Below are positions 7,526-37,616 of a stretch of DNA of 64,000 nucleotides, one piece after another (position 1 is the stretch's first letter; each line of letters starts with the position of its first letter). A program made the translations under genes and the position numbers. The DNA is taken from positions 2,112,001-2,176,000 of the forward strand of contig CP182352.1 in NCBI GenBank assembly GCA_048571215.1. Reading direction: 5' to 3'. The stretch is from Halarcobacter sp. (lineage in GTDB: Bacteria > Campylobacterota > Campylobacteria > Campylobacterales > Arcobacteraceae). A model generated the notes under the pieces. That model had not been told where the DNA came from. It was given only the letters and a program-made list of their open reading frames with translations, and did no database searches.

Positions 7526-8734
7526 ATGGAAGAGAAAATCAAAGAAGCACTAGCAGAAATACAAAGAGGAACAGCTGAAATAATAGATATTGAAAGAATT
7601 GAAAAACTTCTAAGGAACTATTATGAAAATGGCAAAAACTTTTATGTAAAAGCAGGATTTGATCCAACAGCACCAGACTTACACCTAGGACATACAGTAC
7701 TTATTCAAAAACTTGCTGCCTTCCAAAAATATGGAGGGATTGTACAGTTTTTAATTGGAGATTTTACAGCTACCATTGGAGACCCAACAGGTAAAAGTGA
7801 AACAAGAAAAGTTTTAAGTGAAGAGCAAGTTTTACAGAATGCGCAAAGTTATAAAGATCAAGTTTTTAAAATCCTAGACCCAGAAAAAACAGAAGTTATG
7901 TTTAATTCTAAATGGCTAAAAGAGTTAGGAACAGCAGGACTTATCTCACTTGCTTCAAACTTAACAGTTGCAAGAATGTTAGAAAGAGATGATTTTTCAA
8001 AAAGATATGCTTCGAATACTCCAATAGCAGTAAATGAATTTATGTATCCTTTACTTCAAGGTTACGATTCTATAGCTATGAATACAGATATAGAGCTAGG
8101 TGGAACAGATCAAAAGTTTAACTTACTTATGGGTAGAACTTTACAAAAAGCTTATGATACGAAAAAACAACAAGCTGTACTTATGATGCCTATATTAGAA
8201 GGTTTAGATGGGGTACAAAAAATGTCTAAATCACTAGGTAATTATATTGGTGTAACAGATAAAGCAAATGATATGTTTGGAAAAGTTTTATCAATCTCAG
8301 ATGAACTTATGTGGAGATATTTTGAACTATTATCTTCAAAATCGTTAAAAGAGATTGAAGATATGAAAAATAAAGTTGAAGATGGTTCTTTACACCCTAA
8401 AAAGGTAAAAGAGTCTTTAGCTATGGAAATTGTTGATAGATTTCACGGAATTGGACAAGGTGAGATAGCAAAACAAGAATTTGAAAAGGTTTTTGCTAAA
8501 AAAGATATACCTACTGATATGCCAGAATTTCAACTTGAAGCTGGTATTTGGATTTGTCAAGCCTTAGTGGATACAAAACTTGTAAATTCAACTTCACAAG
8601 CTAGACGTGATATAAAAGCTAATGCAGTAAGTATCAATCAAGAAAAAGTTAGCGATGAAAAATTAAATTTAGAAATAGGTGAATATATTTTACAAAAAGG
8701 TAAAAAGAATTTCGCTAAGATAATAATAAAATAA
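7526..8734 (+). CDS. tyrS: Tyrosine--tRNA ligase
   Basis: [19 protein letters not shown]-terminal S4 domain. Confidence 0.98.
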
Positions 8735-8744
8735 AAGGCCAGTA

Positions 8745-9818
8745 TTGAAAATAGGAAAATATGAAATAAAACACCCAATAATACAAGGTGGAATGGGTGT
8801 TGGAATTAGTTGGGATAAATTAGCTGGAACAGTGAGTAAAGAAGGTGGTCTTGGAGTAATTTCTGGTGTTGGAACTGGTTATTATAAAAGTGATGAGTTT
8901 CAAGTAAAAACAAAAAAAGACAAACCAGTAGATGTACTAAATTTTTACTCAAAAGATGCACTAAATACAATAATAAAAAATGCAAGAAAAATATGTGGAG
9001 ATGCGCCACTTGCATGTAATGTTTTATACGCATGTAATGATTATGGAAGAATAGTAAGAGATGCTTGTGAAGCAGGTATAAATATGATAATCACAGGAGC
9101 TGGGATTCCTACAAATATGCCAGAATTTACAAAAGATTTTCCTGATGTTGCTTTGATACCAATTGTATCAAGTGCAAGAGCTTTAAAACTTATTTGTAGA
9201 AAATGGAAAAGATATAATAAACTTCCAGATGCAGTTATTGTTGAGGGACCAAAATCTGGTGGTCATCAAGGTTTCTCTTATGAACAATGTTTTCAAGAAG
9301 AGTTCCAATTAGAAAACATTGTACCTCCTGTACTTGAAGAAGCAAAAAACTGGGGGAATCCTCCAATTATTGCAGCAGGTGGTATTTGGGATAAAAATGA
9401 TATTGATAAGTTTATGGATATGGGTTGTTCTGGTGTTCAAATGGCAACTAGATTTATAGGAACCTTTGAGTGTGATGCTGATCCAGTATTTAAAAAAGTA
9501 CTTATTGATTCAAAATCAGAGGATATAAAACTTATGAAATCACCAGTTGGACTTCCTGCTCGTGGAGTTAGAACCAACTTGCAAAAATCTTTAGATGAAG
9601 GGAATGCCCCAAAAGTAACTTGTATATCTAACTGTGTAGCACCTTGCAATAGAGGTGTTGAAGCTAAAATTGTTGGATATTGTATAGCTGATAGATTAGG
9701 TGCAGCATATCAAGGTGATTTAGATACAGGATTATTTTTCACAGGCTCAAATGGATATAAAATTGAAAAAGTTATATCAGTTCATGAGTTGATGGAAAAA
9801 CTAACAAAAGGAGAGTAA
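8745..9818 (+). CDS. Nitronate monooxygenase-family flavoprotein (FabX-like acyl-ACP dehydrogenase/isomerase)
   Basis: PIIQGGMGVG, EGPKSGGHQG, AAGGIWD; Cys cluster CISNCVAPC...YCIAD as in the Fe-S-binding FabX type. Confidence 0.85.
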   Translation: MKIGKYEIKHPIIQGGMGVGISWDKLAGTVSKEGGLGVISGVGTGYYKSDEFQVKTKKDKPVDVLNFYSKDALNTIIKNARKICGDAPLACNVLYACNDYGRIVRDACEAGINMIITGAGIPTNMPEFTKDFPDVALIPIVSSARALKLICRKWKRYNKLPDAVIVEGPKSGGHQGFSYEQCFQEEFQLENIVPPVLEEAKNWGNPPIIAAGGIWDKNDIDKFMDMGCSGVQMATRFIGTFECDADPVFKKVLIDSKSEDIKLMKSPVGLPARGVRTNLQKSLDEGNAPKVTCISNCVAPCNRGVEAKIVGYCIADRLGAAYQGDLDTGLFFTGSNGYKIEKVISVHELMEKLTKGE

Positions 9819-24522: not shown

Positions 24523-24801
24523 CTATTGTCCACCACCAACACTTGCATCTAGTTCTGCATGTATATCTTCGTGGGGTGTTTTATTGTAATCATCTTTTGC
24601 ACTTTGTAGTGCATTTATCACTTCATCTATATTTTCATAAGGAATTTCAACATTTCCAACTGCTTTACCAAACTCTGTGATATCTACTTTTACCACTGGA
24701 TCACTATATTCACCATGTGGTTTTTCTACGTGTGAGATTTCTATTCTATCTTCACTAAAATGATGAGCTAATTTTATTGATTTTATATTTTTCTCTGACA
24801 T
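24523..24801 (-). CDS. Small His-containing hypothetical protein, tandem paralog 1
   Basis: AAGGAG RBS; clear paralog of 24957-25238. Confidence 0.85.
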   Translation of the reverse strand: MSEKNIKSIKLAHHFSEDRIEISHVEKPHGEYSDPVVKVDITEFGKAVGNVEIPYENIDEVINALQSAKDDYNKTPHEDIHAELDASVGGGQ

Positions 24802-24956: not shown

Positions 24957-25238
24957 TTATTGTCCTCCACCAACATCTGCATTTAGTTCTGCATGCACAT
25001 CAGAATGGGGAATAGAATTAAAAACACTTTTTGCTTTATTTAGTGCATTAATCAACTCATCTATATTTTCATAAGGAATCTCTAACTTGCCACTGCTTTT
25101 ACCAAACTCAGTCACATCAATTTTAACAACAGGATCACTATAATCACCATATGGTTTTTCCACATGACTTACATTGATTTTATCTTTTTTAAAATGGTGT
25201 GCTAACTTAATTGACTTAACTTTTATACTTTCGCTCAT
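24957..25238 (-). CDS. Small His-containing hypothetical protein, tandem paralog 2
   Basis: AAGGAGG RBS; shares KSIKLAHHF, SDPVVK, EIPYENIDE and C-terminal VGGGQ with paralog 1. Confidence 0.85.
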   Translation of the reverse strand: MSESIKVKSIKLAHHFKKDKINVSHVEKPYGDYSDPVVKIDVTEFGKSSGKLEIPYENIDELINALNKAKSVFNSIPHSDVHAELNADVGGGQ

Positions 25239-25552: not shown

Positions 25553-26206
25553 TTATTGAGGTTTGAATGACTTTGTTGTCTTACATACATGAGGGAAAAG
25601 ACACTTATCGCAATCAGGATTTAAAGCTTTGCAAGTATATCTTCCAAACAAAACCATAGCTTGATGAAAAATATGTAAATCCCCTTTTAGTTTTTTAACT
25701 AAATGCTCTTCTGTTTGCTCAACTGTTTTACCATCACTAAGACCTAACCTATGTGATACTCTAAATACGTGTGTATCTACAGCCATAAGATTCGCACCCT
25801 CAGCTTCTATCATAAATACATTAGCGGTTTTATTTCCTACACCTGCAAGTTTTATTAACTGTTTTGTATCATGGGGAATATCTCCACCATGAAGATTTAC
25901 TACACTTTGAGCCATTTTAATAATATTTTTTGATTTATTATTAAAAAAAGAGCAAGATTTTAACAACTCTTTCACATCTTCAAGTGAAGCTTCTGCTAAA
26001 TCAAAAGGTGTAGGATATCTTTCAAATAAAGCAGGAGTTATTATATTTACTCTTTTATCAGTACATTGAGCAGATAAGATAATCGCAATAAGTAACTCAA
26101 AATCATTTCTATAATTTAATTCAGTTACAGCATCTGAATATTTTTCAACAAAGGCCTCTTTTATAATCTGTATATCTTCTTTTGTAGCTTTTTTTATTCT
26201 TGCCAA
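25553..26206 (-). CDS. nth: Endonuclease III
   Basis: LSAQCTDKRVN, HhH motif GVGNKTANV, VDTHVFRV, C-x6-C-x2-C-x5-C Fe-S motif. Confidence 0.97.
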   Translation of the reverse strand: MARIKKATKEDIQIIKEAFVEKYSDAVTELNYRNDFELLIAIILSAQCTDKRVNIITPALFERYPTPFDLAEASLEDVKELLKSCSFFNNKSKNIIKMAQSVVNLHGGDIPHDTKQLIKLAGVGNKTANVFMIEAEGANLMAVDTHVFRVSHRLGLSDGKTVEQTEEHLVKKLKGDLHIFHQAMVLFGRYTCKALNPDCDKCLFPHVCKTTKSFKPQ

Positions 26207-26299: not shown

Positions 26300-26560
26300 A
26301 TGTTTATAAAAAGAAATGAAGAGTTACTATCATCAGAAATGGATGATGAATTAGTTATGATGAATCTTGAATCTAATAATTATTTTGGATTAAATAAAGT
26401 TGGGAAAGATATTTGGGAATTTCTTGAAGAAGAACAAACACTAAATAACTTATGTGAAAAGCTTACAAATAAATATGATGTATCTTTAGAACAATGCAAA
26501 GAAGATATTACTCCTTTTATTGATAAACTAAAAGAGTTAAATATTATTGAAGTATCTTAA
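26300..26560 (+). CDS. Lasso peptide RiPP recognition element (PqqD family, B1)
   Basis: 86 aa; DDELVMMNLESNNYFGLNKVGKDIWEFL...YDVSLEQCKEDI; directly upstream of B2. Confidence 0.92.
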   Translation: MFIKRNEELLSSEMDDELVMMNLESNNYFGLNKVGKDIWEFLEEEQTLNNLCEKLTNKYDVSLEQCKEDITPFIDKLKELNIIEVS

Positions 26561-27005
26561 CTCCTTAATCAATTTTTTAAAAAGACCAAAGAGGGAAATG
26601 CTTTTAATTGTAAAATCATTTCTTTTACTTTTGCAAATTAAATTTCAACTAAAAAAATATAATTTTAATACACTTGCAAAAAAATATAATTTAATCTTAC
26701 AAAAAGATGATATTATCCATAAAGATATAGATATAAAAAAAGTAAAAACAATTGGCTGGGCAGTTGAAAGGTCAGCTTTACTTTTACCTTGGGATGGTTT
26801 ATGTCTTGTAAAAGCCTTAGCAGCACAACAATTACTTAAAAAACAAAACTTATCGGGAACAATTTTTATGGGTGTGAAAAAAGATAAAGAAGGAAAAGAA
26901 TTAGAAGCTCATGCCTGGCTTAAATATAATGATACTTTTTTAACTGGACGAGCTGGACATAAAGAGTTTACTGTTGTCTCAAGATTTACTTGGAGTATAA
27001 ATTAA
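26547..27005 (+). CDS. Lasso peptide leader peptidase (B2, transglutaminase-like)
   Basis: PW..LCLVKALA (catalytic Cys), GVKK, LEAHAWL (His). Confidence 0.92.
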   Translation: MKYLNSLINFLKRPKREMLLIVKSFLLLLQIKFQLKKYNFNTLAKKYNLILQKDDIIHKDIDIKKVKTIGWAVERSALLLPWDGLCLVKALAAQQLLKKQNLSGTIFMGVKKDKEGKELEAHAWLKYNDTFLTGRAGHKEFTVVSRFTWSIN

Positions 27006-27006
27006 A

Positions 27007-28827
27007 ATGAGTAGTTTTAAAGATAAATATATTGATTTTAAAGCACAAATAAAATACTTTCCAAAAACAATAAAACTAATATGGAATGCTTCAAGATTTC
27101 TAATATTTGCTTGGGCGAGTTTACTAATATTTTTAGGAACACTTCCCGCTTTGCAAATATATTTAATAAAACCTCTAGTTGATACATTATCAAATATAGA
27201 AAAAGAAAATATAGATTTAATAATAAATGATTTATACTTGCCAATTATAGTTTTAGCATTAACTTTACTTTTAACTCCAATATTAACATCTTTATTATCC
27301 TATGTTAGAAATATACAAGCCCAAAAGGTGCAAAACTCTATTAGAAAAAAGATTCAAAAAAAAGCAGTATCTTTAGATATGAAACACTTTGAAGATAGTG
27401 AGTATTATAATAAACTACATAGAGCTCATATTGATGCTATTAGTAAACCCATTGCCCTATTAGAAAATATAGGAACCTTTTTTCAAAATATATTAACTTT
27501 TCTTGCTATATTAATTATCTTACTTCCAATTGCTTGGTGGTTCCCTTTAGTTTTAATAGTATCAATCATCCCGTCACTAATCATCTCATTAAAATTTATT
27601 TTAAAACTACATAATCATAGAATAAAAACTACGAAAGATGAAAGAAAATTAAACTATTTAGATTTTCTAATGACAAATAATGAATCAGCTGCAGAAGTTA
27701 GAACATTTAATCTTGAACATTATTTTAAAAAAATTTATTGGAAATTAAAACACTCTATTCAAAGTGAATATTTTTCAATTTTAAAATCCCAATTAAAGCT
27801 TGAAACGATTAGTTCACTTTTCTCTTTTTTTGTTGTTATTATTGTAATGTTATTTGTTGTAAATCAAACATTAAATGGTAATATTTCAATTGGTTCTTTA
27901 GTTATGTATTATTTTGCCTTTACTCAAGGACAAAAGGTCTTAAAAACACTATTTTCAAATATTAGTGAACTATATAAAAATATTATGTTTATTGAAAACC
28001 TATTTGAGTTTTTATCTATTGAGAATTTAAAAATCAAATATGATAAAAAACTAAAGAAAAATGTACCATGTAAAATAGAAATTAGTAATATATCTTTTAA
28101 ATATCCAAAAGCAAATAAATATGCTATTGAAAACTTATCAATGAATTTAGAACCAAATCAAATAACTGCAATAGTTGGAACAAATGGAAGTGGTAAAAGT
28201 ACACTAATAAAACTGCTTAATGCTTTTTACTACTCTGAGACGGGAAGTATAAAAATAAATGATGAAGATATAAGAGATATTGATCCAAAATCCATTAGAA
28301 AAAATATAACAATTCTTTTTCAAAATTTTATAAAATATAATCTAAAAGTTAAAGAGAATATAACTTTAGCAGATACTACAAAAAAAATATCAAAAGATAA
28401 ACTTGATGATATTAGTTCAATAGTAGGAATCAATGAAGTTATTAAAAAACTTCCAAATGAATATGAAACAGTTTTAGGAAGATGGTTTGGTGGAGTTGAA
28501 CTAAGCGGTGGGGAATGGCAAAAAGTAGCACTTGCTAGAGCTTATTTAAAAGATTCGAGTATATTAATACTAGATGAACCAACAAGTGCTATGGACTCTT
28601 GGGCAGAAGCTAAATGGCTAGAAAAATTTAAAATACTGTGCAAAGATAAAACTGCTTTAATAGTAACCCATAGATTTACCACTGCAAAACATGCAGATAT
28701 AATTCATGTAATGAAAGATGGTAAAATAGTTGAATCAGGTAGTCATGAAGAATTAATCAAACAAAATAGTCTTTATGCAACATCTTGGAATAAACAAATA
28801 AAAGAGTTTAAGGAAAAAGATGAGTGA
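27007..28827 (+). CDS. ABC exporter (fused permease-ATPase), lasso D protein
   Basis: TM domain plus GTNGSGKS, LSGGEWQKVALARA, LILDEPT. Confidence 0.92.
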   Translation: MSSFKDKYIDFKAQIKYFPKTIKLIWNASRFLIFAWASLLIFLGTLPALQIYLIKPLVDTLSNIEKENIDLIINDLYLPIIVLALTLLLTPILTSLLSYVRNIQAQKVQNSIRKKIQKKAVSLDMKHFEDSEYYNKLHRAHIDAISKPIALLENIGTFFQNILTFLAILIILLPIAWWFPLVLIVSIIPSLIISLKFILKLHNHRIKTTKDERKLNYLDFLMTNNESAAEVRTFNLEHYFKKIYWKLKHSIQSEYFSILKSQLKLETISSLFSFFVVIIVMLFVVNQTLNGNISIGSLVMYYFAFTQGQKVLKTLFSNISELYKNIMFIENLFEFLSIENLKIKYDKKLKKNVPCKIEISNISFKYPKANKYAIENLSMNLEPNQITAIVGTNGSGKSTLIKLLNAFYYSETGSIKINDEDIRDIDPKSIRKNITILFQNFIKYNLKVKENITLADTTKKISKDKLDDISSIVGINEVIKKLPNEYETVLGRWFGGVELSGGEWQKVALARAYLKDSSILILDEPTSAMDSWAEAKWLEKFKILCKDKTALIVTHRFTTAKHADIIHVMKDGKIVESGSHEELIKQNSLYATSWNKQIKEFKEKDE

Positions 28828-29608
28828 TTTTACATATAGTCTAAAAAAGTTTATATCATTTTTCTTTGAACCTTTAAGTATTTTATTTATACTTTTAACT
28901 ATTATTCTTTTTATATCACTATGTAAAGGGTATAAACAACTTATCCCTCTGATAATTTTTTCAATCTTATGGCTTTTTATTTCAAGTTATCATCCTGTAT
29001 CAGAATACTTTATAAAAGAACTTGAATCCTCTTTAAAACCTTTTCAAGTAGATAAAAAAGATGTTAAGTATATTGTTGTACTTGGAGGAGGGGCAAGGTC
29101 AACTACTTCTGATATACCCAATGCTCAGAAGCTTAAGTATAGTGGATATCAAAGATTTCATGAGAGTATGAGACTATTAAAAGCATATCCAAAATCAAAA
29201 GTTATATTCTTAGGTCCTAAATTAAAAAATAGAACTTATAGTGAAGCTTCTATTTATAAAGAGCTTGCACTAAATGCAAAAGTTGATAATAATAGAATAA
29301 TCATAGTTGAAGATGCAAAAGATACAATATCAGAAGCTAAAAGTGTAAAACAAATAGTTAATAGTGATTCTTTGGTTCTAATTACAACTGCTTTTCATAT
29401 GAAAAGAGCCTCAAAGATATTTAAAAAATATGATATGAATCCTTTATTAGCCCCTGTAAGTTTTGCTAAAACAGGCAAATATAAATGGAGTAAAATTCTA
29501 TCTATTAGTTCAATGTATAGAACTAACATATTACTTCATGAGTATATTGGTCAGTTATGGATAAAAATAAAATACTTTTTTATAAGGGATGATAGATTAA
29601 ATGATTGA
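28820..29608 (+). CDS. DUF218/YdcF (ElyC/SanA-like) membrane-anchored protein
   Basis: Two N-terminal TM helices, IVVLGGG, DTISEA, LITTAFHMKRA, HEYIG. Confidence 0.85.
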   Translation: MSDFTYSLKKFISFFFEPLSILFILLTIILFISLCKGYKQLIPLIIFSILWLFISSYHPVSEYFIKELESSLKPFQVDKKDVKYIVVLGGGARSTTSDIPNAQKLKYSGYQRFHESMRLLKAYPKSKVIFLGPKLKNRTYSEASIYKELALNAKVDNNRIIIVEDAKDTISEAKSVKQIVNSDSLVLITTAFHMKRASKIFKKYDMNPLLAPVSFAKTGKYKWSKILSISSMYRTNILLHEYIGQLWIKIKYFFIRDDRLND

Positions 29609-30815
29609 TAATATCAGTGATAAAATTAAAATAAATCTTCTAAAAATGTTAAATTATAATATAAAGATTGATGATGAATTAAAATCTTTATCTAGTGATG
29701 AGATTGAAGAGATTATATTCTTATGTAAAAGACATCATATAAAAGAGTATTTATATTATAACCTAAAGAAAAATGATTTATTATCACTTCTTTCACAAGA
29801 GCAAATAAAAGATTTAGAAGACTCTTTTAAACAAAAAACTTTTTATAATATGTCTTTACTTGCAGAACTAAAAAATATATCAAAAGAGTTTAAAAAAGAT
29901 AATATACCACTAATTGCACTAAAAGGTCTACATCTTATACAAGATATTTACCCTCATATTGCATTAAGATATTCAAGAGATTTGGATATATTAGTTCCCA
30001 AAAATAAAGGTAAAGCTTCATATGAAACTTCAAAAAGATTAGATTACTACTGTGATAAAAAACTAACAGAATATGACTACTCTTTTAAATATCATCACCA
30101 TTTGCATCAGTTTTTTAACAGTAAAAAGGGATTTATACTTGAACTTCATGCTCACTTAAGTGAACAAATTCATATAAATACCAATAGGCTATGGCAAAAT
30201 TCAAAGGAAGAAAAACTTGATTTAGAAGATTTGATTATTCATTTATCTATTCATATGTCTTATTCAGATATATTTAAAAATGATTTAAGGCATTACTTAG
30301 ATCTTTATGTAGTATTAGAAGAGTTAAAAGATGATATAAATTGGAAAATAGTAAAACAAAGAGCAGAAGATGATAAGTGTTTAGAAGGTATTTATTTAAT
30401 GTTTAAAATCATTGGAATACTTTTTTCTATAACTTTACCAAAAGAGGTAGAAAGTTTTTATTCATATACTAGTCAAAGAGAACAAATAGTAAATAATGCA
30501 ATAGATTTTATGTGGCTTTATGATAAATCTTCACAAGATTATGTATTTTATAGAGCACAAAATATTAGTATTACACAAAGAAACTCTTTATTTAAAAAAG
30601 TATTATCAAGGATATTCATTCCAAAACATGAATTAGCATATATATATTCACAAGAAAAAAACTCTAAGAAGATATATATCTATTATTTTATAAGATTCTA
30701 TGATTTAATAAAAAGACACACATTTAAAATAATTGGTATTAATACAAATGACTCAAAGAAAAAGTTTGTTGAAAAAACTTTATTTGTATATAACTATTTA
30801 AACAAAGGTAAGTAA
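29601..30815 (+). CDS. Nucleotidyltransferase (NTP_transf_5-like; PadeN/PsmN-type lasso tailoring enzyme)
   Basis: IPLIALKG, YP...LRYSRDLDILV, LELH, DLIIHLSIH; lasso cluster context. Confidence 0.85.
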   Translation: MIDNISDKIKINLLKMLNYNIKIDDELKSLSSDEIEEIIFLCKRHHIKEYLYYNLKKNDLLSLLSQEQIKDLEDSFKQKTFYNMSLLAELKNISKEFKKDNIPLIALKGLHLIQDIYPHIALRYSRDLDILVPKNKGKASYETSKRLDYYCDKKLTEYDYSFKYHHHLHQFFNSKKGFILELHAHLSEQIHINTNRLWQNSKEEKLDLEDLIIHLSIHMSYSDIFKNDLRHYLDLYVVLEELKDDINWKIVKQRAEDDKCLEGIYLMFKIIGILFSITLPKEVESFYSYTSQREQIVNNAIDFMWLYDKSSQDYVFYRAQNISITQRNSLFKKVLSRIFIPKHELAYIYSQEKNSKKIYIYYFIRFYDLIKRHTFKIIGINTNDSKKKFVEKTLFVYNYLNKGK

Positions 30816-30820
30816 TAAAC

Positions 30821-32150
30821 GAGACCGTTCAAAAATCTGTGTCAAGTCACCTAAAGTAACAAATCCATACTTGTTACAACTCTAAATAATTATCCAATCT
30901 CCCTTCGAAAAATATAGCAAGTTGGGAGATTGTTAAACTCCAATTATGCACTGGCTGAGTCCATTTTACTTTTGCATTTAATATTCCCATATACAACAAT
31001 TTTAAAAGTGAATTCTCATTAGGGAAAGCTCCTTTTGTTTTGGTTAATTTTCTAAATTGCCTATGTACAGATTCAATAATATTTGTAGTGTACATAATCT
31101 TTCTTATCTCTTTTGGATATTTAAAATAATAAGATAAATTCTCCCATTTATTTTGCCAAGATTGAAGTACTATGGGATATCTTTTCCCCCATTTTTCATC
31201 TAGTTTTAAAAGCTCATCTTCTGCAAGTTCTTTTGTTGTTGCTTGATAAACAAGTTTTAAATCTCTCATAAACTCTTTTTGGTCTTTAGAAGCTACATAC
31301 TTCAATGAATTACGAATTTGATGTACAACACAAAGTTGTACTTCGGTATTTGGATATATTGTTTTAATAGCTTCAGGAAAGCCTTTAAGACCATCTACTG
31401 ATGCAATTAGTATATCTTCTAATCCTCTATTATTTAAATCAGTAAGAACACTAAGCCAGAAGTTTGCTCCTTCACTTTGGGATAAATATAATCCTAATAT
31501 ATCTTTTTTACCATCAATTCCCATCCCTAAAACTGTGTAAACTGCTTTACTCACATACTTCCCACCATCTTTTATTTTATAATGTATCGCATCAAGCCAT
31601 ACAAATGGATAAATAGCTTCTAAAGGTCTACTTTGCCAAGCTTTTACCTTATCTATAATTTTATCTGTAATAGTGCTTATTGTTGCACTTGATAATTGTA
31701 TTTGATATATCTCTTCAATATGTTTTATAATATCTCTATAGCTTAATCCTAAGCCATACATAGATAATATCTTTTCTTCTATTTCATTAGACATTGTTGT
31801 TTGGTTTTTCTTTACAAGTTGTGGTTCAAAAGAACCTGTTCTATCTCTTGGAGTATTCAATTCAAAGGAACCACTTGTTGATTTTATTGTTTTAGAGCTT
31901 TTACCATTCTTTCTATTTTTATTTCCTGCAAATACATCTTGAGTTATATGAGAATCTAATTCTGCTTCTAAAGCAGCTTCAACTAATTGTTTTACTAATG
32001 GAGCAAGTACTCCATCTTTACCATTGATATTTTTACCTGCAAGTAAATCTTGTACAGCTTCATTAAAATCAAATTGTTTTTTCTTTTCCATCTATATCAA
32101 TCCTTATAATATTTATTATATCAGACTGACACAGATTTTCTAACACTCCC
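30821..32150 (-). mobile_element. IS256-family insertion sequence, 1330 bp
   Basis: Terminal inverted repeats GAGACCGTTCAAAAATCTGTGTCA (30821-30844) and reverse complement GGGAGTGTTAGAAAATCTGTGTCA (32127-32150), 19/24 identical. 8-bp direct repeat TAATAAAC at 30813-30820 and 32151-32158. Confidence 0.95.
30874..32091 (-). CDS. IS256-family (Mutator) DDE transposase
   Basis: PRDRTGSFEP, VWLDA, VDGLKGF, QLCVVHQIRN, TTNIIES. Confidence 0.97.
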   Translation of the reverse strand: MEKKKQFDFNEAVQDLLAGKNINGKDGVLAPLVKQLVEAALEAELDSHITQDVFAGNKNRKNGKSSKTIKSTSGSFELNTPRDRTGSFEPQLVKKNQTTMSNEIEEKILSMYGLGLSYRDIIKHIEEIYQIQLSSATISTITDKIIDKVKAWQSRPLEAIYPFVWLDAIHYKIKDGGKYVSKAVYTVLGMGIDGKKDILGLYLSQSEGANFWLSVLTDLNNRGLEDILIASVDGLKGFPEAIKTIYPNTEVQLCVVHQIRNSLKYVASKDQKEFMRDLKLVYQATTKELAEDELLKLDEKWGKRYPIVLQSWQNKWENLSYYFKYPKEIRKIMYTTNIIESVHRQFRKLTKTKGAFPNENSLLKLLYMGILNAKVKWTQPVHNWSLTISQLAIFFEGRLDNYLEL

Positions 32151-32197
32151 TAATAAACTCATTATATATATAAATTGCTATGTTCATTACTATATTT

Positions 32198-33817
32198 TTA
32201 CTCAAATAATTTATATTTTTTTACTAAGCTCATACCTGAAGAAGTTAAAAATGTACTACATTCTTCTTTTATTATAAAAATATCTTTTTCATCTAAATAT
32301 TTATTATAATTATTTATTTTTCCCTCTCTAACTCTAAGACTTTCTTTATTTATGGTGTCTAAATCATATCCTGCTACACCTTTTTCAATTTCAACTTTCT
32401 GCATATTTTCAAAACTTCCATTATTTATTGCTTCAATTATAATTTTATCATCAATAGGTAATTCTAAAAAAAATATCAATTTTTTTATATTTGTATAAAT
32501 ATTTAAATGCATATTTTCATATGTAATAAAAAAATTTGTATTATCACTATTATCAAACAGACTATAATTATTTAATAATTCACAATACTGTTTTAAAACA
32601 TTTGTATTTTTTATAAAATCACACAATTTTCCCTCAAAAATTTTCAAGCGATTTTTTTGTTGAAAATAATCTGATACAATAATTTCAAAAATATTTCTTA
32701 ACAAAATTATTTTAGGGAAGCTATTTATCCCTTCACTTATATTTTTATGACTTGATATGATTAATGGAAACTTACTATTTTCATAAAAATCATATCCTAA
32801 AATACCCTTTATATTTTCATATTCTTCATTTGGCATTAAAGAAAACATATTTTTCAAATTTAAATCTATATTTAAATTAAATATCTTATTAATATATGAT
32901 GCAATAATAAATCTTAACCAAGTCCTTCCTGATTTTGGAATCGAATACAAATAAAATATTTTTTTCCTTTTTAAAATTGAATTGAAAAAATAGTTTTTAT
33001 GATTACTTATTTTTTTTGTAATTTTTGTTTTTTCTTCACTTAAATTAGGCACAAGTTTAAAATTTTTAAAACCAATATCAGATAGTTTTTTTACGTCAAA
33101 AAATACATGACCTAAATCTAATCTAGGGATTAAATCTTTTGAGCATGCTTGCATTGAAGAAGTTATAGTATTATTATTTTGATGAGATATTGTATTATAA
33201 CAAATTCTAGCCGTACAATTATAGGCACAATTAGCGTTTGCAAAAAGTGTAATTCTATCTTTGTTAGGTAATGAAATTAGAAAATCATCATCATCATTTT
33301 TATCCATTGGAATAACAATATTATCATAAATAGTTAATGCATTTATAACTTTTTCAAGAGTATTTAAATTTTTAATTAAACTTGCTTTTATCTTATACTT
33401 AGGAAAGTCTTTCCTTATTTGCTTTGCAAGTTCGTCATTTACACAAACTACAGAATTTCCTTTTTTATGATGCTTTTTAAGAAATTCTAAACTTTCTTTA
33501 TAAGTATTTATATCAAAAGAATGATTAGTTAAAGTCAATGAGACACCTATTGAGTTATCCATTAAAGTTTGAAGATGAAAAGAATCCAATGAATATTTTT
33601 TCTGATATATTCTTCCTCCATATAGTTTACTATATTCAGTTGTTGAACCAAAAATACTTTCAATACTTTTAAAAGGTATATACATATAAAATATTCTTAA
33701 ATAGTCCAAGATATTCATATCTTTTTCAATTCCTCTAGAAGATAGAGTAAATTTAAGGCCTTCAATATTAAAACTATTTTTTACGTCAGATGGTTTAATT
33801 AAATTATTGTTTTTCAT
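32198..33817 (-). CDS. Fusion protein: N-terminal peptidase-U32-like (putative Fe-S) domain plus C-terminal PAPS-dependent sulfotransferase
   Basis: N-half LFANANCAYNCTARICYNTISH...QACSK and GFKNFKL. C-half YSIPKSGRTWLRFII (5'-PSB), LLRNIFEIIVS, ITYE, SFENMQ, LRVREG. The sulfotransferase call is strong; the U32 call is weaker. Confidence 0.7.
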   Translation of the reverse strand: MKNNNLIKPSDVKNSFNIEGLKFTLSSRGIEKDMNILDYLRIFYMYIPFKSIESIFGSTTEYSKLYGGRIYQKKYSLDSFHLQTLMDNSIGVSLTLTNHSFDINTYKESLEFLKKHHKKGNSVVCVNDELAKQIRKDFPKYKIKASLIKNLNTLEKVINALTIYDNIVIPMDKNDDDDFLISLPNKDRITLFANANCAYNCTARICYNTISHQNNNTITSSMQACSKDLIPRLDLGHVFFDVKKLSDIGFKNFKLVPNLSEEKTKITKKISNHKNYFFNSILKRKKIFYLYSIPKSGRTWLRFIIASYINKIFNLNIDLNLKNMFSLMPNEEYENIKGILGYDFYENSKFPLIISSHKNISEGINSFPKIILLRNIFEIIVSDYFQQKNRLKIFEGKLCDFIKNTNVLKQYCELLNNYSLFDNSDNTNFFITYENMHLNIYTNIKKLIFFLELPIDDKIIIEAINNGSFENMQKVEIEKGVAGYDLDTINKESLRVREGKINNYNKYLDEKDIFIIKEECSTFLTSSGMSLVKKYKLFE

Positions 33818-33895
33818 ATAGTATAATATTTTATTTTTACTAATAAAAAGTTTTAAAAAAGCTTCTTAAAATAAATTCATAAAAAAAGGTAGCAT

Positions 33896-34807
33896 TTGTT
33901 TCACTATAAAGCTTTTAATTTACATCTATCAGTCCCATTTGAATGTCCAGAATTAATTGAAATAGATAAAAAAGAAAATGAGTTAGATTTAATATCAGTT
34001 TATTATACTTCATCTTTACCTGAAAAACTAGACAACTTTACCAACTCAGGTCCAACTTTTACTTCAAATAAAAATCAATTTTTATTAAATACAAAAGCAG
34101 ATGTAAAGTTTTTAGTAATAAATGGAAATAAAATATATATTGATTTAGGTGAAGATTGTACAATTGAACAGATGAAACTTTTATTTTTTAGTTCTGTCAT
34201 GGCAGCCTTATTTATGCAAAAGAAGATGTTAGTTTTTCATGCGAGTACCATAAATATAAATGATAAAGCTGTACTTTTTTGTGGAGATTCAGGTCTTGGT
34301 AAATCAACAATTTCAGAAACTTTAGTTAAACAAGGTTATAAAAAACTATCGGATGACATGAGCGTAATATATTATAATAACGAAAAACAAAAAATTATGT
34401 GCATACCATCCTATCCACAATCAAAACTTTGGGAAGAAAGTATAAACTTATTAAATATAGATACTAATGGATTAAAACATGTTCATAATAGATTAAATAA
34501 ATATTTAGTAACAAATAAAGAAAGTTTTTATCATAAAGAACTTCCTGTAGAAAAAATATATATATTATCCATTAATAATAAACAAAATGTATTATTAAAC
34601 GATATAGATAAGTTAAAAGCTATTTATGAAATTGAAAATCAGACTTTTAGAAAAAAATTTTATATAAAAGATGAATATCGAAAGAACTATTTTAATTTAT
34701 TCGTAAAAATAGTTGAACAAGCTACTATTAAACACCTATCAAGACCCTATAAAACGAACTCTATATCTGAAATTAAAAATATATTAAACAATGATTTAAA
34801 TGGATAA
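33896..34807 (+). CDS. HPr-kinase-like lasso peptide kinase (PadeK-type)
   Basis: LVFHAS (His), GDSGLGKST (P-loop), LSDD, PSYPQSKLW. Confidence 0.88.
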   Translation: MFHYKAFNLHLSVPFECPELIEIDKKENELDLISVYYTSSLPEKLDNFTNSGPTFTSNKNQFLLNTKADVKFLVINGNKIYIDLGEDCTIEQMKLLFFSSVMAALFMQKKMLVFHASTININDKAVLFCGDSGLGKSTISETLVKQGYKKLSDDMSVIYYNNEKQKIMCIPSYPQSKLWEESINLLNIDTNGLKHVHNRLNKYLVTNKESFYHKELPVEKIYILSINNKQNVLLNDIDKLKAIYEIENQTFRKKFYIKDEYRKNYFNLFVKIVEQATIKHLSRPYKTNSISEIKNILNNDLNG

Positions 34808-35639
34808 TGGTATTTATTGGATAGTATCATATCCTAAAAGTGGCAATACTTGGTGTAGGATGATTTTAAATAATTATATTGCAAACTTAAATGAACCTTT
34901 AAATATAAATCATTTAAATACAAAATTCATATCTTCAAATAGAAAATTTTTTGATGAGATAATTGGTTTATCATCATCAGATATGAGTGAAGATGAGATA
35001 AAACTATATCAACCTGAAGTTTATAAAGAGTTAATAAAAAACACAAATGAAGATTTATTTATAAAAGTACATGATGCATATATTTTTAATAAAGATAATA
35101 AACCTATATTTCCAGAAGAAATTACTAAAGGGGTAATATACATAGTTAGAAACCCTTTAGATGTTGTAGTTTCATATGCAAATCATATGGATGAAACTAT
35201 AGAAAATACAATTAAAATTCTAAATAATAAAACACATACTTTGGATATTCAATTTGATGAATTAAATATAAGATTACCACAATTTTTAGGAGATTGGAGT
35301 TTTAATGTAAATTCATGGTTAGATTCAAAATTACCTATACATTTAATTAAATATGAAGATATGCTTGACAATACATTTAGTACCTTTTATAAAACATTAG
35401 AATTTTTAGGATTTGATATAGATACAAAAAGATTACAAAAAGCAATAGATTTTTCCTCTTTTAAAGAGTTACAAAAACAGGAAAAAATACATGGTTTTAT
35501 AGAAAAGTCACCTAAAACTAAAAAGTTTTTTAATAGTGGTAAAAAAGATATTTTTAAGGAACATTTAACAGAAAAACAAATAAAATATATTGTATACAAC
35601 AATTTTCATTTAATGAAAAAATTAAATTATATTCATTAA
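34800..35639 (+). CDS. PAPS-dependent sulfotransferase (Sulfotransfer_1)
   Basis: IYWIVSYPKSGNTW, KVH, YIVRNPLDVVVS, IKYEDM, FFNSG. Confidence 0.9.
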   Translation: MDNGIYWIVSYPKSGNTWCRMILNNYIANLNEPLNINHLNTKFISSNRKFFDEIIGLSSSDMSEDEIKLYQPEVYKELIKNTNEDLFIKVHDAYIFNKDNKPIFPEEITKGVIYIVRNPLDVVVSYANHMDETIENTIKILNNKTHTLDIQFDELNIRLPQFLGDWSFNVNSWLDSKLPIHLIKYEDMLDNTFSTFYKTLEFLGFDIDTKRLQKAIDFSSFKELQKQEKIHGFIEKSPKTKKFFNSGKKDIFKEHLTEKQIKYIVYNNFHLMKKLNYIH

Positions 35640-35677
35640 AATGTGATGTATGCACTGCTTTATAAATGGAGGAAAAT

Positions 35678-35821
35678 ATGGAAAAGATTGAATTAGATGA
35701 AAATCATTTACAAGCTGAAAATAAAGAAACTTGGGAAATACCTGCAATAGAAGTTTTAGATACAGATGAAACAAAGGTTGGTGCTCCTGGTCCTTTTGAT
35801 GGAAGCGGGCCATACTCTTAA
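35678..35821 (+). CDS. Lasso peptide precursor (47 aa; not in ORF track)
   Basis: GGAGG at 35668-35672. Manual translation MEKIELDENHLQAENKETWEIPAIEVLDTDETK-VGAPGPFDGSGPYS: WxxPxI leader motif, Thr at -2, Asp at core position 8, C-terminal Ser; lies 16 bp before the cyclase. Confidence 0.92.
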   Translation: MEKIELDENHLQAENKETWEIPAIEVLDTDETKVGAPGPFDGSGPYS

Positions 35822-35837
35822 TCTAGATTAAGTTATT

Positions 35838-37616
35838 TTGAATAGTTTTTTATGTGAATATAAGAAAAATTTTCTTTACCCATTTTCTAATAATGATAAT
35901 ATTGACACTTTCGAGTATAAAAATATAACTTGTACTATAGATAATAAAGATTCTACATATCTAGATATAAAAAATAGTTTTTTTTATATACTTATAGGTG
36001 ATATTTATAATATAGATGAACTTTATATATTAGAAAATCTAAACAAAGAAACTACAAGTAAGTTTGAACTTATCGAAACTTTATATCAAAAATATGATAA
36101 AAATATATTTGATATGTTGATAGGAGATTGGTTTTTACTTATTTATAATAGTGTAATTGATAGCTTAATATTTGCACAAAGCCATCTAGGTTTCTGTGCA
36201 ATATACTACTATATGGATGATAATAAACTTTTCTTTTCAAATACTCTTGAAAAACTTTTAAATATAGATGAGATTCCTAAAAAAGTCAATTATAATTATA
36301 TTAAAAATATACAACTATTTTCCATACCAAACCAATATAATGAAACCTCGTTTTTACATATCAAAACTTTAAATCCTGGGAAATATATGTATATAGATAA
36401 AAACAACTTTATACATAAAAAATATTGGTATCCTGAAAATCTAGAAAAGAATAAATCTATCAAAAAAGAAGAAGCTATAATTAAAGTAAAAGAGATTTTC
36501 ACTGAAGCTATAAGAGCTAGAATAAAAGATAAAACTATAGTAAGTTCAATGCTTAGTGGTGGATTAGATAGTAGCAGTGTTTCTATTATATCTTCAATAT
36601 TACTAAAGGAAAAAAATAAAAAATTAAATTGCTTTAGTCATATTCCAGCTTTTGATGTTGATAAAAATAAAATACCAAAAAATAGAATATCAAGTGAAGA
36701 AAAGTTAATATTAAAAATATTAGATAAATATCCAAATATAAAAGAAAACTTTGTAGATTCAAAGCAATACACAATACTTGATGGTATAGATGAGTATATA
36801 AATACTTTCAATGAAATACCACTAAATCTTAATGCTTATTGGTTGATAGATATTTGTAAAAAAGCTAAAGAATTAAATTCAGATATTTTACTGACAGGAG
36901 ATTTAGGAAATTATACAATCTCTTATAAAGGAGCTAAAAATAGTTTAAATATATTTAAATATTTTAAATTGTTTGGTTTGAAACATACCCTTAAAGAAAA
37001 AGTGATAAAAAAGTTAATATTCTACAAATACAAAACTATTTATACTATAAATTCTACTTTTATAAAAGAAAGCTATATAAATAAAAGATATATAAATAGA
37101 TATAAATTATTTAAGTTTAGACTTATCAAAATGAATTATTTAAATAATGGAAAGTTTATGTTAGCTGGGCATTATCAAAGAGCAAAGATTATGGGTGGAT
37201 TTGTATCACAGCTTCAATTAAATATAAGTGACCCAAGCTCCGACAAAGAACTTATTGAGTTTCTTTATCAATTGCCACAGGAGTTCTTTTTCAGTAAAAA
37301 AGGGGAAGAAAAAGATATAATAAAAAACTTTATGAAAGATTTAACGCCAGATAAAGTCTTGTTTCAAAAGAAAAGAGGACTACAAGCTTCTGATATTTTT
37401 GAACGTATATTATTGGATGTTGATAAAATAGAAAATATAATAAAAAACTTTAAAACAGATGATTTAGATTTTGAACTTTTCAATAAAACAAAAATGTTAG
37501 AAGACCTAGAAAGATTAAGAAAAAAAGAATTACCTTTAGAATCATTACATTCTTTAGTAAAAACTGTAGCCCAAATGAAATTTATAAATTATGTTAAAGA
37601 TAAATATAAAGTCTAA
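35838..37616 (+). CDS. Lasso cyclase (asparagine-synthetase-like, C protein)
   Basis: Degenerate N-terminal glutaminase-like domain, SSMLSGGLDSSSV PP-loop, LLTGDLGN, DPSSDKELIEF, KRGLQA. Confidence 0.9.
   Translation: MNSFLCEYKKNFLYPFSNNDNIDTFEYKNITCTIDNKDSTYLDIKNSFFYILIGDIYNIDELYILENLNKETTSKFELIETLYQKYDKNIFDMLIGDWFLLIYNSVIDSLIFAQSHLGFCAIYYYMDDNKLFFSNTLEKLLNIDEIPKKVNYNYIKNIQLFSIPNQYNETSFLHIKTLNPGKYMYIDKNNFIHKKYWYPENLEKNKSIKKEEAIIKVKEIFTEAIRARIKDKTIVSSMLSGGLDSSSVSIISSILLKEKNKKLNCFSHIPAFDVDKNKIPKNRISSEEKLILKILDKYPNIKENFVDSKQYTILDGIDEYINTFNEIPLNLNAYWLIDICKKAKELNSDILLTGDLGNYTISYKGAKNSLNIFKYFKLFGLKHTLKEKVIKKLIFYKYKTIYTINSTFIKESYINKRYINRYKLFKFRLIKMNYLNNGKFMLAGHYQRAKIMGGFVSQLQLNISDPSSDKELIEFLYQLPQEFFFSKKGEEKDIIKNFMKDLTPDKVLFQKKRGLQASDIFERILLDVDKIENIIKNFKTDDLDFELFNKTKMLEDLERLRKKELPLESLHSLVKTVAQMKFINYVKDKYKV

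Follow-up and report, generated by a model that had tools for sequence, protein, structure and literature searches.

The 64,000-nucleotide window analysed here (positions 2,112,001 to 2,176,000 of contig CP182352.1, assembly GCA_048571215.1, Halarcobacter sp.) carries, between nth and uvrB, a gene block whose content identifies it as a kinase/C-terminal-Ser type of class II lasso peptide cluster. We consider it probable that this block, an acquired island, makes one exported class II kinase-type lasso peptide that carries sulfate, with a phospho(hexosyl) group on Ser14 and with Tyr13 as the likely sulfation target. The new part is a fusion of a U32-fold domain to a sulfotransferase; the kinase and nucleotidyltransferase chemistry is already known. 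All genes named in an initial annotation of this DNA were recovered at its coordinates, with uvrB and nth as flanks, but it had missed an IS256 insertion sequence (IS) in the block and two paralogous loci elsewhere in the genome. The nth–uvrB interval comprises eleven open reading frames (ORFs), namely B1, B2, D, a DUF218 gene and N on the plus strand, the IS256 transposase and the fusion on the minus strand, and K, ST, A and C on the plus strand. The features are as follows (aa, amino acids; RiPP, peptide made on the ribosome and modified after translation; ABC, ATP-binding cassette; PAPS, 3′-phosphoadenosine 5′-phosphosulfate).

25553..26206, minus: nth, left flank of the insertion site; TIGR01083
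26300..26560, plus: B1, RiPP recognition element, 86 aa; PF05402, 70 bits
26547..27005, plus: B2, leader peptidase, 152 aa, Cys86/His122; PF13471, 70.4; NF033537, 67.4 against a cut-off of 33
27007..28827, plus: D, MsbA-like ABC exporter, 606 aa; ABC_membrane and ABC_tran
28820..29608, plus: DUF218/ElyC-like membrane protein; PF02698; overlaps D and N
29601..30815, plus: N, PsmN-like nucleotidyltransferase-fold protein (NTP_transf_5) with a DxD motif; PF14907, 133 bits
30821..32150, minus: IS256 element, transposase at 30874-32091; NF033543, 411 bits
32198..33817, minus: fusion of a predicted U32-fold (Mk0906-like) TIM barrel and a PAPS-dependent sulfotransferase, 539 aa; PF00685 on residues 290-519
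33896..34807, plus: K, HprK-like precursor kinase, 303 aa; PF07475, 35.4 against a cut-off of 33.3; HPr kinase PDB matches
34800..35639, plus: ST, stand-alone sulfotransferase coupled to K, 279 aa; PF00685, 79.8
35666..35821, plus: A, precursor, 51 aa; core VGAPGPFDGSGPYS at 35777-35818
35838..37616, plus: C, lasso cyclase, 592 aa; best NCBIfam match NF033535
37621..39594, minus: uvrB, right flank of the insertion site; TIGR00631

The ends of B1, B2, D, the DUF218 gene and N abut or overlap. As the fusion gene is oriented oppositely, the block is not a single operon, and a promoter and terminator scan of the region returned 82 sites compared with 97 in shuffles, i.e. no excess.

Core machinery and predicted product

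The assignment to the lasso peptides made by the initial annotation was borne out. B1 matches the PqqD family (PF05402), which marks it as a RiPP recognition element; it scores 79.7 against NF033536 (cut-off 80) and its best PDB match is TbiB1 (E 2.8e-10). B2 passes the lasso B2 model and has the make-up of a transglutaminase-like Cys peptidase, missing none of 11 conserved columns, and it does match Transglut_core3 (PF13471), whose absence would have spoken against a lasso cluster. Exporter D is 48% and 41% identical to the D proteins of two sister lasso clusters, L143 and L149 (L numbers denote the loci compared). Cyclase C keeps the SGGLDSS ATP loop and groups with cyclases of other lasso loci. 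The precursor has a 37-aa leader with W-x-x-P and a terminal Thr36-Lys37, which places Thr at −2, followed by the predicted 14-residue core with Val1, Asp8, Tyr13 and the C-terminal Ser14; it has an acid within core positions 7-9, no Cys, and a predicted Val1–Asp8 ring. In related loci the precursors keep this register, with the W/Y-x-x-P...Thr-2 pattern, an acidic residue at 8-9 and Ser as the last residue, and Val1 is seen again in L029 and twice in L042. The latter (L042:5125-8849) is a single Bacteroidales locus with six precursor genes, two of them with Val1. With an HprK-like K, a C-terminal Ser14 and a PsmN-like N bearing DxD, the system works, as judged from its sequence, like the paeninodin/pseudomycoidin type, yet it is not a member of the NCBIfam family NF033524.

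In the proposed pathway, B1 would bind the leader, K would phosphorylate Ser14 on the linear precursor and B2 would cleave after Lys37. C would then link Asp8 to the amine of Val1; the ring so closed would have 8 residues and the tail 6, Tyr13 being the sole bulky one in the tail. N would put a hexose onto the Ser14 phosphate and D would export the product. The fusion would act on Tyr13 by O-sulfation, possibly after O2-independent hydroxylation of the ring by an Fe-S U32 domain, with PAPS supplied by chromosomal cysDNC, and the bulky groups on Tyr13 and Ser14 would probably lock the short tail in the ring. A cyclised product is very likely. Phosphorylation of Ser14 is scarcely less so by analogy with the terminal-Ser kinases characterised from Firmicutes and Proteobacteria, as given in passages of PMC8498205. 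A hexose on the phosphate is probable by analogy with PsmN, which is required for this step in pseudomycoidin, the unmodified form of which is not threaded (passages of PMC6993621). At least one sulfate on the product is fairly likely, its placement on Tyr13 falls somewhat short of an even chance, and hydroxylation of Tyr13 by the U32 domain we regard as rather unlikely. The neutral monoisotopic masses calculated for the possible products are 1288.572 for the cyclic core, 1368.539 with phosphate, 1368.529 with sulfate, 1448.496 with both, 1530.592 with phosphate and hexose, 1610.548 when sulfate is added to these two, and 1706.500 when one more oxygen and a second sulfate are added as well.

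The U32-fold/sulfotransferase fusion and the tail tyrosine

About 60 relatives cover most of the fusion's length at 37-50% identity and form an unnamed family whose full-length members come from several phyla. The fusion protein alone found no match in genome contigs; an alignment-based profile search did. Sequence searches with the U32-like N-terminal domain matched nothing in Pfam, the PDB or plasmids, and the ESM Atlas gave a weak lead only, a cluster with PF01136 on 13% of its members. The structural model of the domain (predicted local distance difference test score 93) is a TIM barrel of the U32 type, with Mk0906 (5d88) as the best fold match (Foldseek TM 0.63, E 3.7e-8). A structural comparison with 5d88 (VIA) gave Z 16.9 and a root-mean-square deviation of 3.6 over 218 aligned residues, the next Z being 11.2, so that the 'U32-like' label of the initial annotation stands by predicted fold. 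Cys197, Cys201 and Cys206 are invariant in 46 sequences and Cys225 is at least 90% conserved. Passages of PMC10990095 link U32 proteins to an aromatic hydroxylation that depends on prephenate and not on O2. Both sulfotransferase domains, in the fusion and in ST, exceed the PF00685 cut-off.

Membership of the fusion in the pathway is suggested by its genomic company. K or C occurs in the fetched locus of 15 of 16 full-length fusions and 9 of the 10 closest stand-alone U32 domains, compared with 0/23 distant stand-alone ones, and C-like genes occur in 2/31 loci that match the sulfotransferase half only; the sample is 80 genome loci, and the near/distant cut was made by rank and set after inspection. 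This cut agrees with a tree of the 46 U32 domains, in which a side with support of 100 holds 24 rows including the window domain, 23 of them lasso-linked, while none of the other 22 rows is (this tree, like the cyclase and Tyr-link trees below, is a quick tree). In L149 a fusion 50% identical to that of the window is translationally coupled between C and B2. The U32-like profile found no match in 183 other genomes of the family, and a second copy in this genome also lies in a lasso locus (L002). Mariprofundus sp. KV is a cultured fusion carrier with a lasso cluster (L027); Methylomonas methanica and Labilibaculum euxinus are cultured carriers noted from fusion presence alone. Within our favoured explanation, the fusion belongs to the pathway even though its gene is inverted. 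A literature search found nothing joining U32 proteins with lasso peptides, sulfotransferases or RiPP hydroxylation, most subscription journals being outside its coverage.

The stand-alone sulfotransferase lies directly after K in all 22 ST-carrying loci of L024-L049. Its best PDB matches are Teg12 and Teg14, which we take to be glycopeptide aryl sulfotransferases, and His91, Arg117 and Ser125 are invariant, consistent with a 5′-phosphosulfate loop, a catalytic His and the 3′-phosphate Arg/Ser; the C-terminal RKG..G motif of the window protein is degenerate. The host can make PAPS, since cysD, cysN and cysC are present in a surface-polysaccharide cluster about 65 kb away. Related loci carry such genes within the cluster itself: L149 has cysD, cysN and two APS (adenosine 5′-phosphosulfate) kinases directly downstream of N, after the N-B1-ST-K operon, and in L152 an APS kinase gene separates B1 from B2.

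The choice of Tyr13 as target comes from the precursors. In the first set, a Tyr lies within the last 8 precursor residues in 22/24 ST- or U32-bearing loci compared with 5/21 loci lacking both, or 26/34 against 6/25 per precursor, a count that includes three extra Tyr-less precursor-like ORFs of L152, which spoil an otherwise clean L152/L153 sister contrast. Six other residue classes showed no such excess, Asp going in the opposite direction. The ST-negative group comprises loci of 4.4 kb or more with K, the Tyr counts cover loci with a detected precursor, and all counts are undropped (near-duplicate removal would drop the counterexample L151). On pooling, with a post hoc split, a tail Tyr was found in 20/21 U32 loci, 3/6 ST-only loci and 7/38 loci with neither. 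Independent pairs on a 64-row cyclase tree gave 6.7 in the same direction, 0.2 opposite and 2.1 ties for any ST (median p 0.016), and 5.1, 0.0 and 1.9 for U32 (p 0.06). These data suggest that the tail-Tyr link follows the U32 domain better than ST alone, although Tyr could alternatively be favoured as a steric plug.

Several observations weigh against this account. The peptide, its modifications and the enzyme activities are predicted from the genes. C scores 151 bits against NF033535, under its cut-off of 525, A scores 17.8 bits against the paeninodin precursor model NF033524 (cut-off 27), and Val1 is an atypical ring start. The window ST misses 7 of 55 conserved columns, the second worst of 27. 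PF01136 matches 0/46 aligned U32-like domains at E<=0.1, and the Cys spacing is CX3CX4CX18C, compared with CX6CX15CX3/4C in characterised U32 enzymes (passages of 10.1101/587956), for none of which is direct hydroxylase activity proven according to passages of PMC10990095. The window fusion is inverted and adjoins an IS, and a fusion in Sulfurimonadaceae (L033:9980-19897) has no lasso genes in 21 kb, being followed by DUF4915 and a 2,427-aa surface protein with giant surface proteins alongside. A pre-specified replication on 60 independently found B2 loci contained only three ST loci and no U32 domain; tail Tyr occurred in 0/1 against 0/4 with automatic precursors and in 1/3 against 2/17 with hand-picked ones. 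This small sample does not confirm the Tyr link, and the U32-versus-ST split was made after this outcome. There are also direct counterexamples: L049 has a U32 domain and no tail Tyr, L151, L241 and L269 have ST and none, three of the four L152 precursors are without Tyr, and L143, L158, L173/174/178, L262 and L267 have a tail Tyr without ST.

The alternative that survives best, to which we give a minor but appreciable chance, keeps the same lasso product but lets the sulfotransferases act on the C-terminal phospho-hexose (or Ser), with the U32 domain serving the glycan or a general sulfotransferase need such as making an acceptor hydroxyl or handling PAPS or its product PAP (3′-phosphoadenosine 5′-phosphate). 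The closest stand-alone U32 loci do carry GT8 (8/10), other sulfotransferases (9/10) and N (7/10), ST is tied to K with a tail Tyr in just half of the ST-only loci, and the wider U32-like family is fused to Sulfotransfer_1, _2 and _3 in either order, to DUF4915 and to TPR. In the fetched stretches of the 16 fusion loci themselves, however, GT8 is found once and N four times, and the window is without a glycosyltransferase. Nor does sulfation of a glycan explain the tail Tyr in 20 of 21 U32 loci, and 20 of the 23 distant stand-alone U32 proteins have no sulfotransferase nearby. Six Bacteroidota lasso-type loci (L039, L040, L043, L045, L047 and L048) have a U32 domain followed by GT8 and sulfotransferase arrays, which suggests, from gene content, a sulfated glycan on the peptide there. 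A sister branch, L050-L072, consists of U32-fold proteins that stand alone in diverse neighbourhoods outside lasso loci, in Shewanella and Thalassotalea among others; the related clusters in the ESM Atlas are mostly viral.

The acquired island and related loci

The block is a horizontally acquired island, as the initial annotation had proposed, and this is well supported by its low GC content, by uvrB–nth synteny in congeners and by the confinement of B2 and the U32-like profile to this genome within the family. The host genome is complete (3.61 Mb, 28.5% GC), and its nth shares a 90% cluster with named Arcobacter proteins. GC is 0.235 in the block without the IS and 0.242 with it, compared with 0.278 and 0.287 in the flanks and 0.285 genome-wide, and 0.235 is below every 10-kb window of the genome. 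Of 24 congeners, 23 yielded uvrB and nth together, and in each of the 23 they lie −4 to 1,738 bases apart; here they are 11,417 bases apart. The gap differs among the 23 congener species, so the site seems to accept small insertions repeatedly. B2 (PF13471) is over the cut-off in one of 184 genomes of the family, this one. Two tandem paralogous ORFs of 92-93 aa (24523-24801 and 24957-25238) with no Pfam match lie just outside the island.

IS256 sits between N and the fusion gene, where it is intergenic and breaks no ORF, and its 8-bp target duplication repeats the stop codon of N. The genome has 15 full-length near-identical copies and two partial ones, so the insertion is recent; six full-length copies match the transposase over just 306 residues. 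Both sides of the IS are matched without differences by contigs of two public DNA runs, which are possibly the source of the assembly.

The two further paralogous loci of the genome are:

L001:6523-12108, genome about 604.5-610.1 kb: second lasso locus, partly decayed
L002:2872-13026, genome about 763-773 kb: third lasso-like locus

L001 contains B1 (68% identical) and K, with B2 broken and N reduced to a remnant; it also has a precursor, a gene that is presumably SGNH-like, a frameshifted second precursor near 9767, and C on the opposite strand. Its intact precursor of 39 aa (8259-8378) has Asp8 and a terminal Ser in the register of the window precursor. L002 has a precursor, a divergent RiPP recognition element, C, K and ST, followed by the stand-alone U32-like domain and GT8; it also carries two extra sulfotransferases, three tail-collar genes, GNAT and an Asp/Asn hydroxylase, and is without B2, D or N. 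In the L002 precursor the leader bears Y-x-x-P, and the ring size can be read in more than one way. As the window holds the only intact B2 of the genome (in a hidden Markov model scan) and the only full copy of N, these two may serve the precursors of L001 and L002 in trans.

The decay in L001 and the recent IS256 raise the question of whether the window cluster, though genuine, is silent here or is decaying, which we consider improbable. Besides the broken B2, N and second precursor of L001, this would fit the drift of ST, the long cyclase branch (1.24 compared with 0.41-0.54 in neighbours) and the TTG starts of B2, K and C. All ten cluster ORFs are full length, however, and a conserved-column check found none missing in B1 and B2, the fusion at its family median, and C, K and N within their family ranges. 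The IS lies between genes, and no other intact B2 or N is available to the precursor loci of the genome, of which there are up to three.

Outside the family, B2 is over the cut-off in 7 of 400 other sampled Campylobacterota genomes. Most of these B2 genes sit in K/C/B1/B2/D clusters; six of the seven fetched loci also show K, C and D, and the seventh is a 2.9-kb contig. The uniqueness that the initial annotation suggested for the lineage is overstated at the level of the phylum, although no lasso B2 was found in 183 other genomes of the family. No paper on a lasso peptide from Arcobacter or Campylobacterota was found, most subscription journals lying beyond the search. Of these relatives, L143 has the B1-B2-D-N module closest to the window; it lacks ST and U32, and between its K and precursor (L143:4428-6770) lie a gene for a geranylgeranyl-reductase-like flavoprotein and two genes of no assigned function. 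L149 has the window gene set except DUF218. The U32/ST subtype is rare: among 60 loci found through B2 in two other phyla, 3 have ST and none has U32. Kinase-type lasso clusters have phage tail-collar genes (PF07484) next to them, frequently as a run of three with GNAT, in L024, L029, L032, L034, L036, L037, L041, L049, L153, L179 and L269.

DUF218, which the initial annotation had counted among the tailoring genes, is absent from all 26 U32-bearing related loci and from 60/60 further B2 loci, and D and N adjoin without it in L143. A tailoring role was therefore rejected, and the gene is probably a passenger despite its overlap with D and N.

A similar passenger status for the fusion, with an ordinary phospho/hexosyl lasso peptide like pseudomycoidin as the product, is improbable. 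It would suit the opposite strand and the place beside IS256, the lack of ST and U32 in L143 and the non-lasso context of L033, as well as L001, where the N remnant directly adjoins K and the fusion is missing from between the two. Against it stand the lasso linkage of 15 of the 16 fusions and 23 of the 24 rows of the clade, the operonic coupling in L149, and the second domain copy of this genome, which is again in a lasso locus, with none in the 183 other family genomes.

We rejected the reading of C as an asparagine synthetase or amidotransferase for surface polysaccharide, which has next to no probability: its best PDB sequence matches are indeed a hydroxyamidotransferase and AsnB, and its score for the lasso cyclase model is under the cut-off, but C has no glutaminase Cys1 and falls outside the clade with support of 100 (Shimodaira–Hasegawa-like approximate likelihood ratio test only) formed by 20/20 Cys1-bearing AsnB-like proteins of this genome and its relatives, whereas clustering with true asparagine synthetases would by the initial annotation's own criterion have refuted its reading; an RiPP recognition element, B2 and a canonical precursor adjoin it, and no lasso cyclase crystal structure is available to match, according to passages of PMC13352647.

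Known systems and implications

The nearest known system is that of pseudomycoidin (psm) from Bacillus pseudomycoides which, in the passages of PMC6993621 consulted, shares split B1/B2, C, D, an HprK-like kinase, NTP_transf_5 with DxD and a precursor ending in Ser. The window differs in adding the K-coupled sulfotransferase and the U32/sulfotransferase fusion, in gene order, in its 14-residue core with Val1 and in its Campylobacterota host. The initial annotation had described this type as one of Firmicutes, which is too narrow: the proteobacterial kinase clusters have been characterised, and clusters combining kinase, sulfotransferase and nucleotidyltransferase are already in print. PadeK, ThcoK and SyanK of the paeninodin-type and proteobacterial clusters act on a C-terminal Ser, with a W-x-x-P leader and a weak NF033524 match as in the window, and some Firmicutes clusters carry extra sulfotransferase and nucleotidyltransferase genes, although the available passages of the paper (PMC8498205) give no function for these sulfotransferases and mention no U32 domain. 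HPr kinase and sulfotransferase genes in lasso clusters of anaerobes, with an unclear role, have been in print since 2014 (passages of PMC4289311), and the kinase with an NTP transferase is called typical of paeninodin-like clusters in parts of PMC13381572.

Sulfation is missing among the lasso modifications in the passages seen of a June 2026 review (PMC13352647). Tyr sulfation of RiPPs has precedents in RaxST, acting on RaxX, and in SslST of the sulfonated lanthipeptides, which resemble the proposed step in PAPS-dependent peptide Tyr O-sulfation of a linear or cyclic substrate (passages of PMC11143521). These belong to other RiPP classes, and SslST is closest to TPST1, in contrast to the Sulfotransfer_1-type window enzymes with their best matches Teg12 and Teg14. 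The window domain resembles UbiU/UbiV, RlhA, TrhP and Mk0906 in its predicted TIM barrel and in having four conserved Cys towards the barrel's C-terminal end, but has 11-12% identity to them, no PF01136 match and a different Cys spacing; unlike them, it is fused to a sulfotransferase and linked to a peptide pathway rather than to quinone or RNA.

A wider proposal, which we put forward as a tentative and rather unlikely one, is that of a cross-phylum lasso subfamily in which a new U32-fold Fe-S branch would hydroxylate the ring of the tail Tyr without O2, with prephenate as the oxygen donor, and the fused sulfotransferase would sulfate the new hydroxyl, on top of Ser phospho-hexosylation. If true, the cluster would encode the first U32 enzyme with a peptide substrate and yield the first sulfated lasso peptide. 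O2-independent U32 chemistry would then extend to RiPPs, and the in vitro U32 assay that is still missing would gain a small soluble substrate. The fusion family is linked to lasso clusters in anaerobes and microaerobes of several phyla. As there is one short precursor with one Tyr and one terminal Ser, the question of sulfation is directly testable. The product may act as a secreted signalling or competitive peptide, a role that we only infer, and the genome documents the rare gain, multiplication and decay of lasso loci in one Arcobacter.

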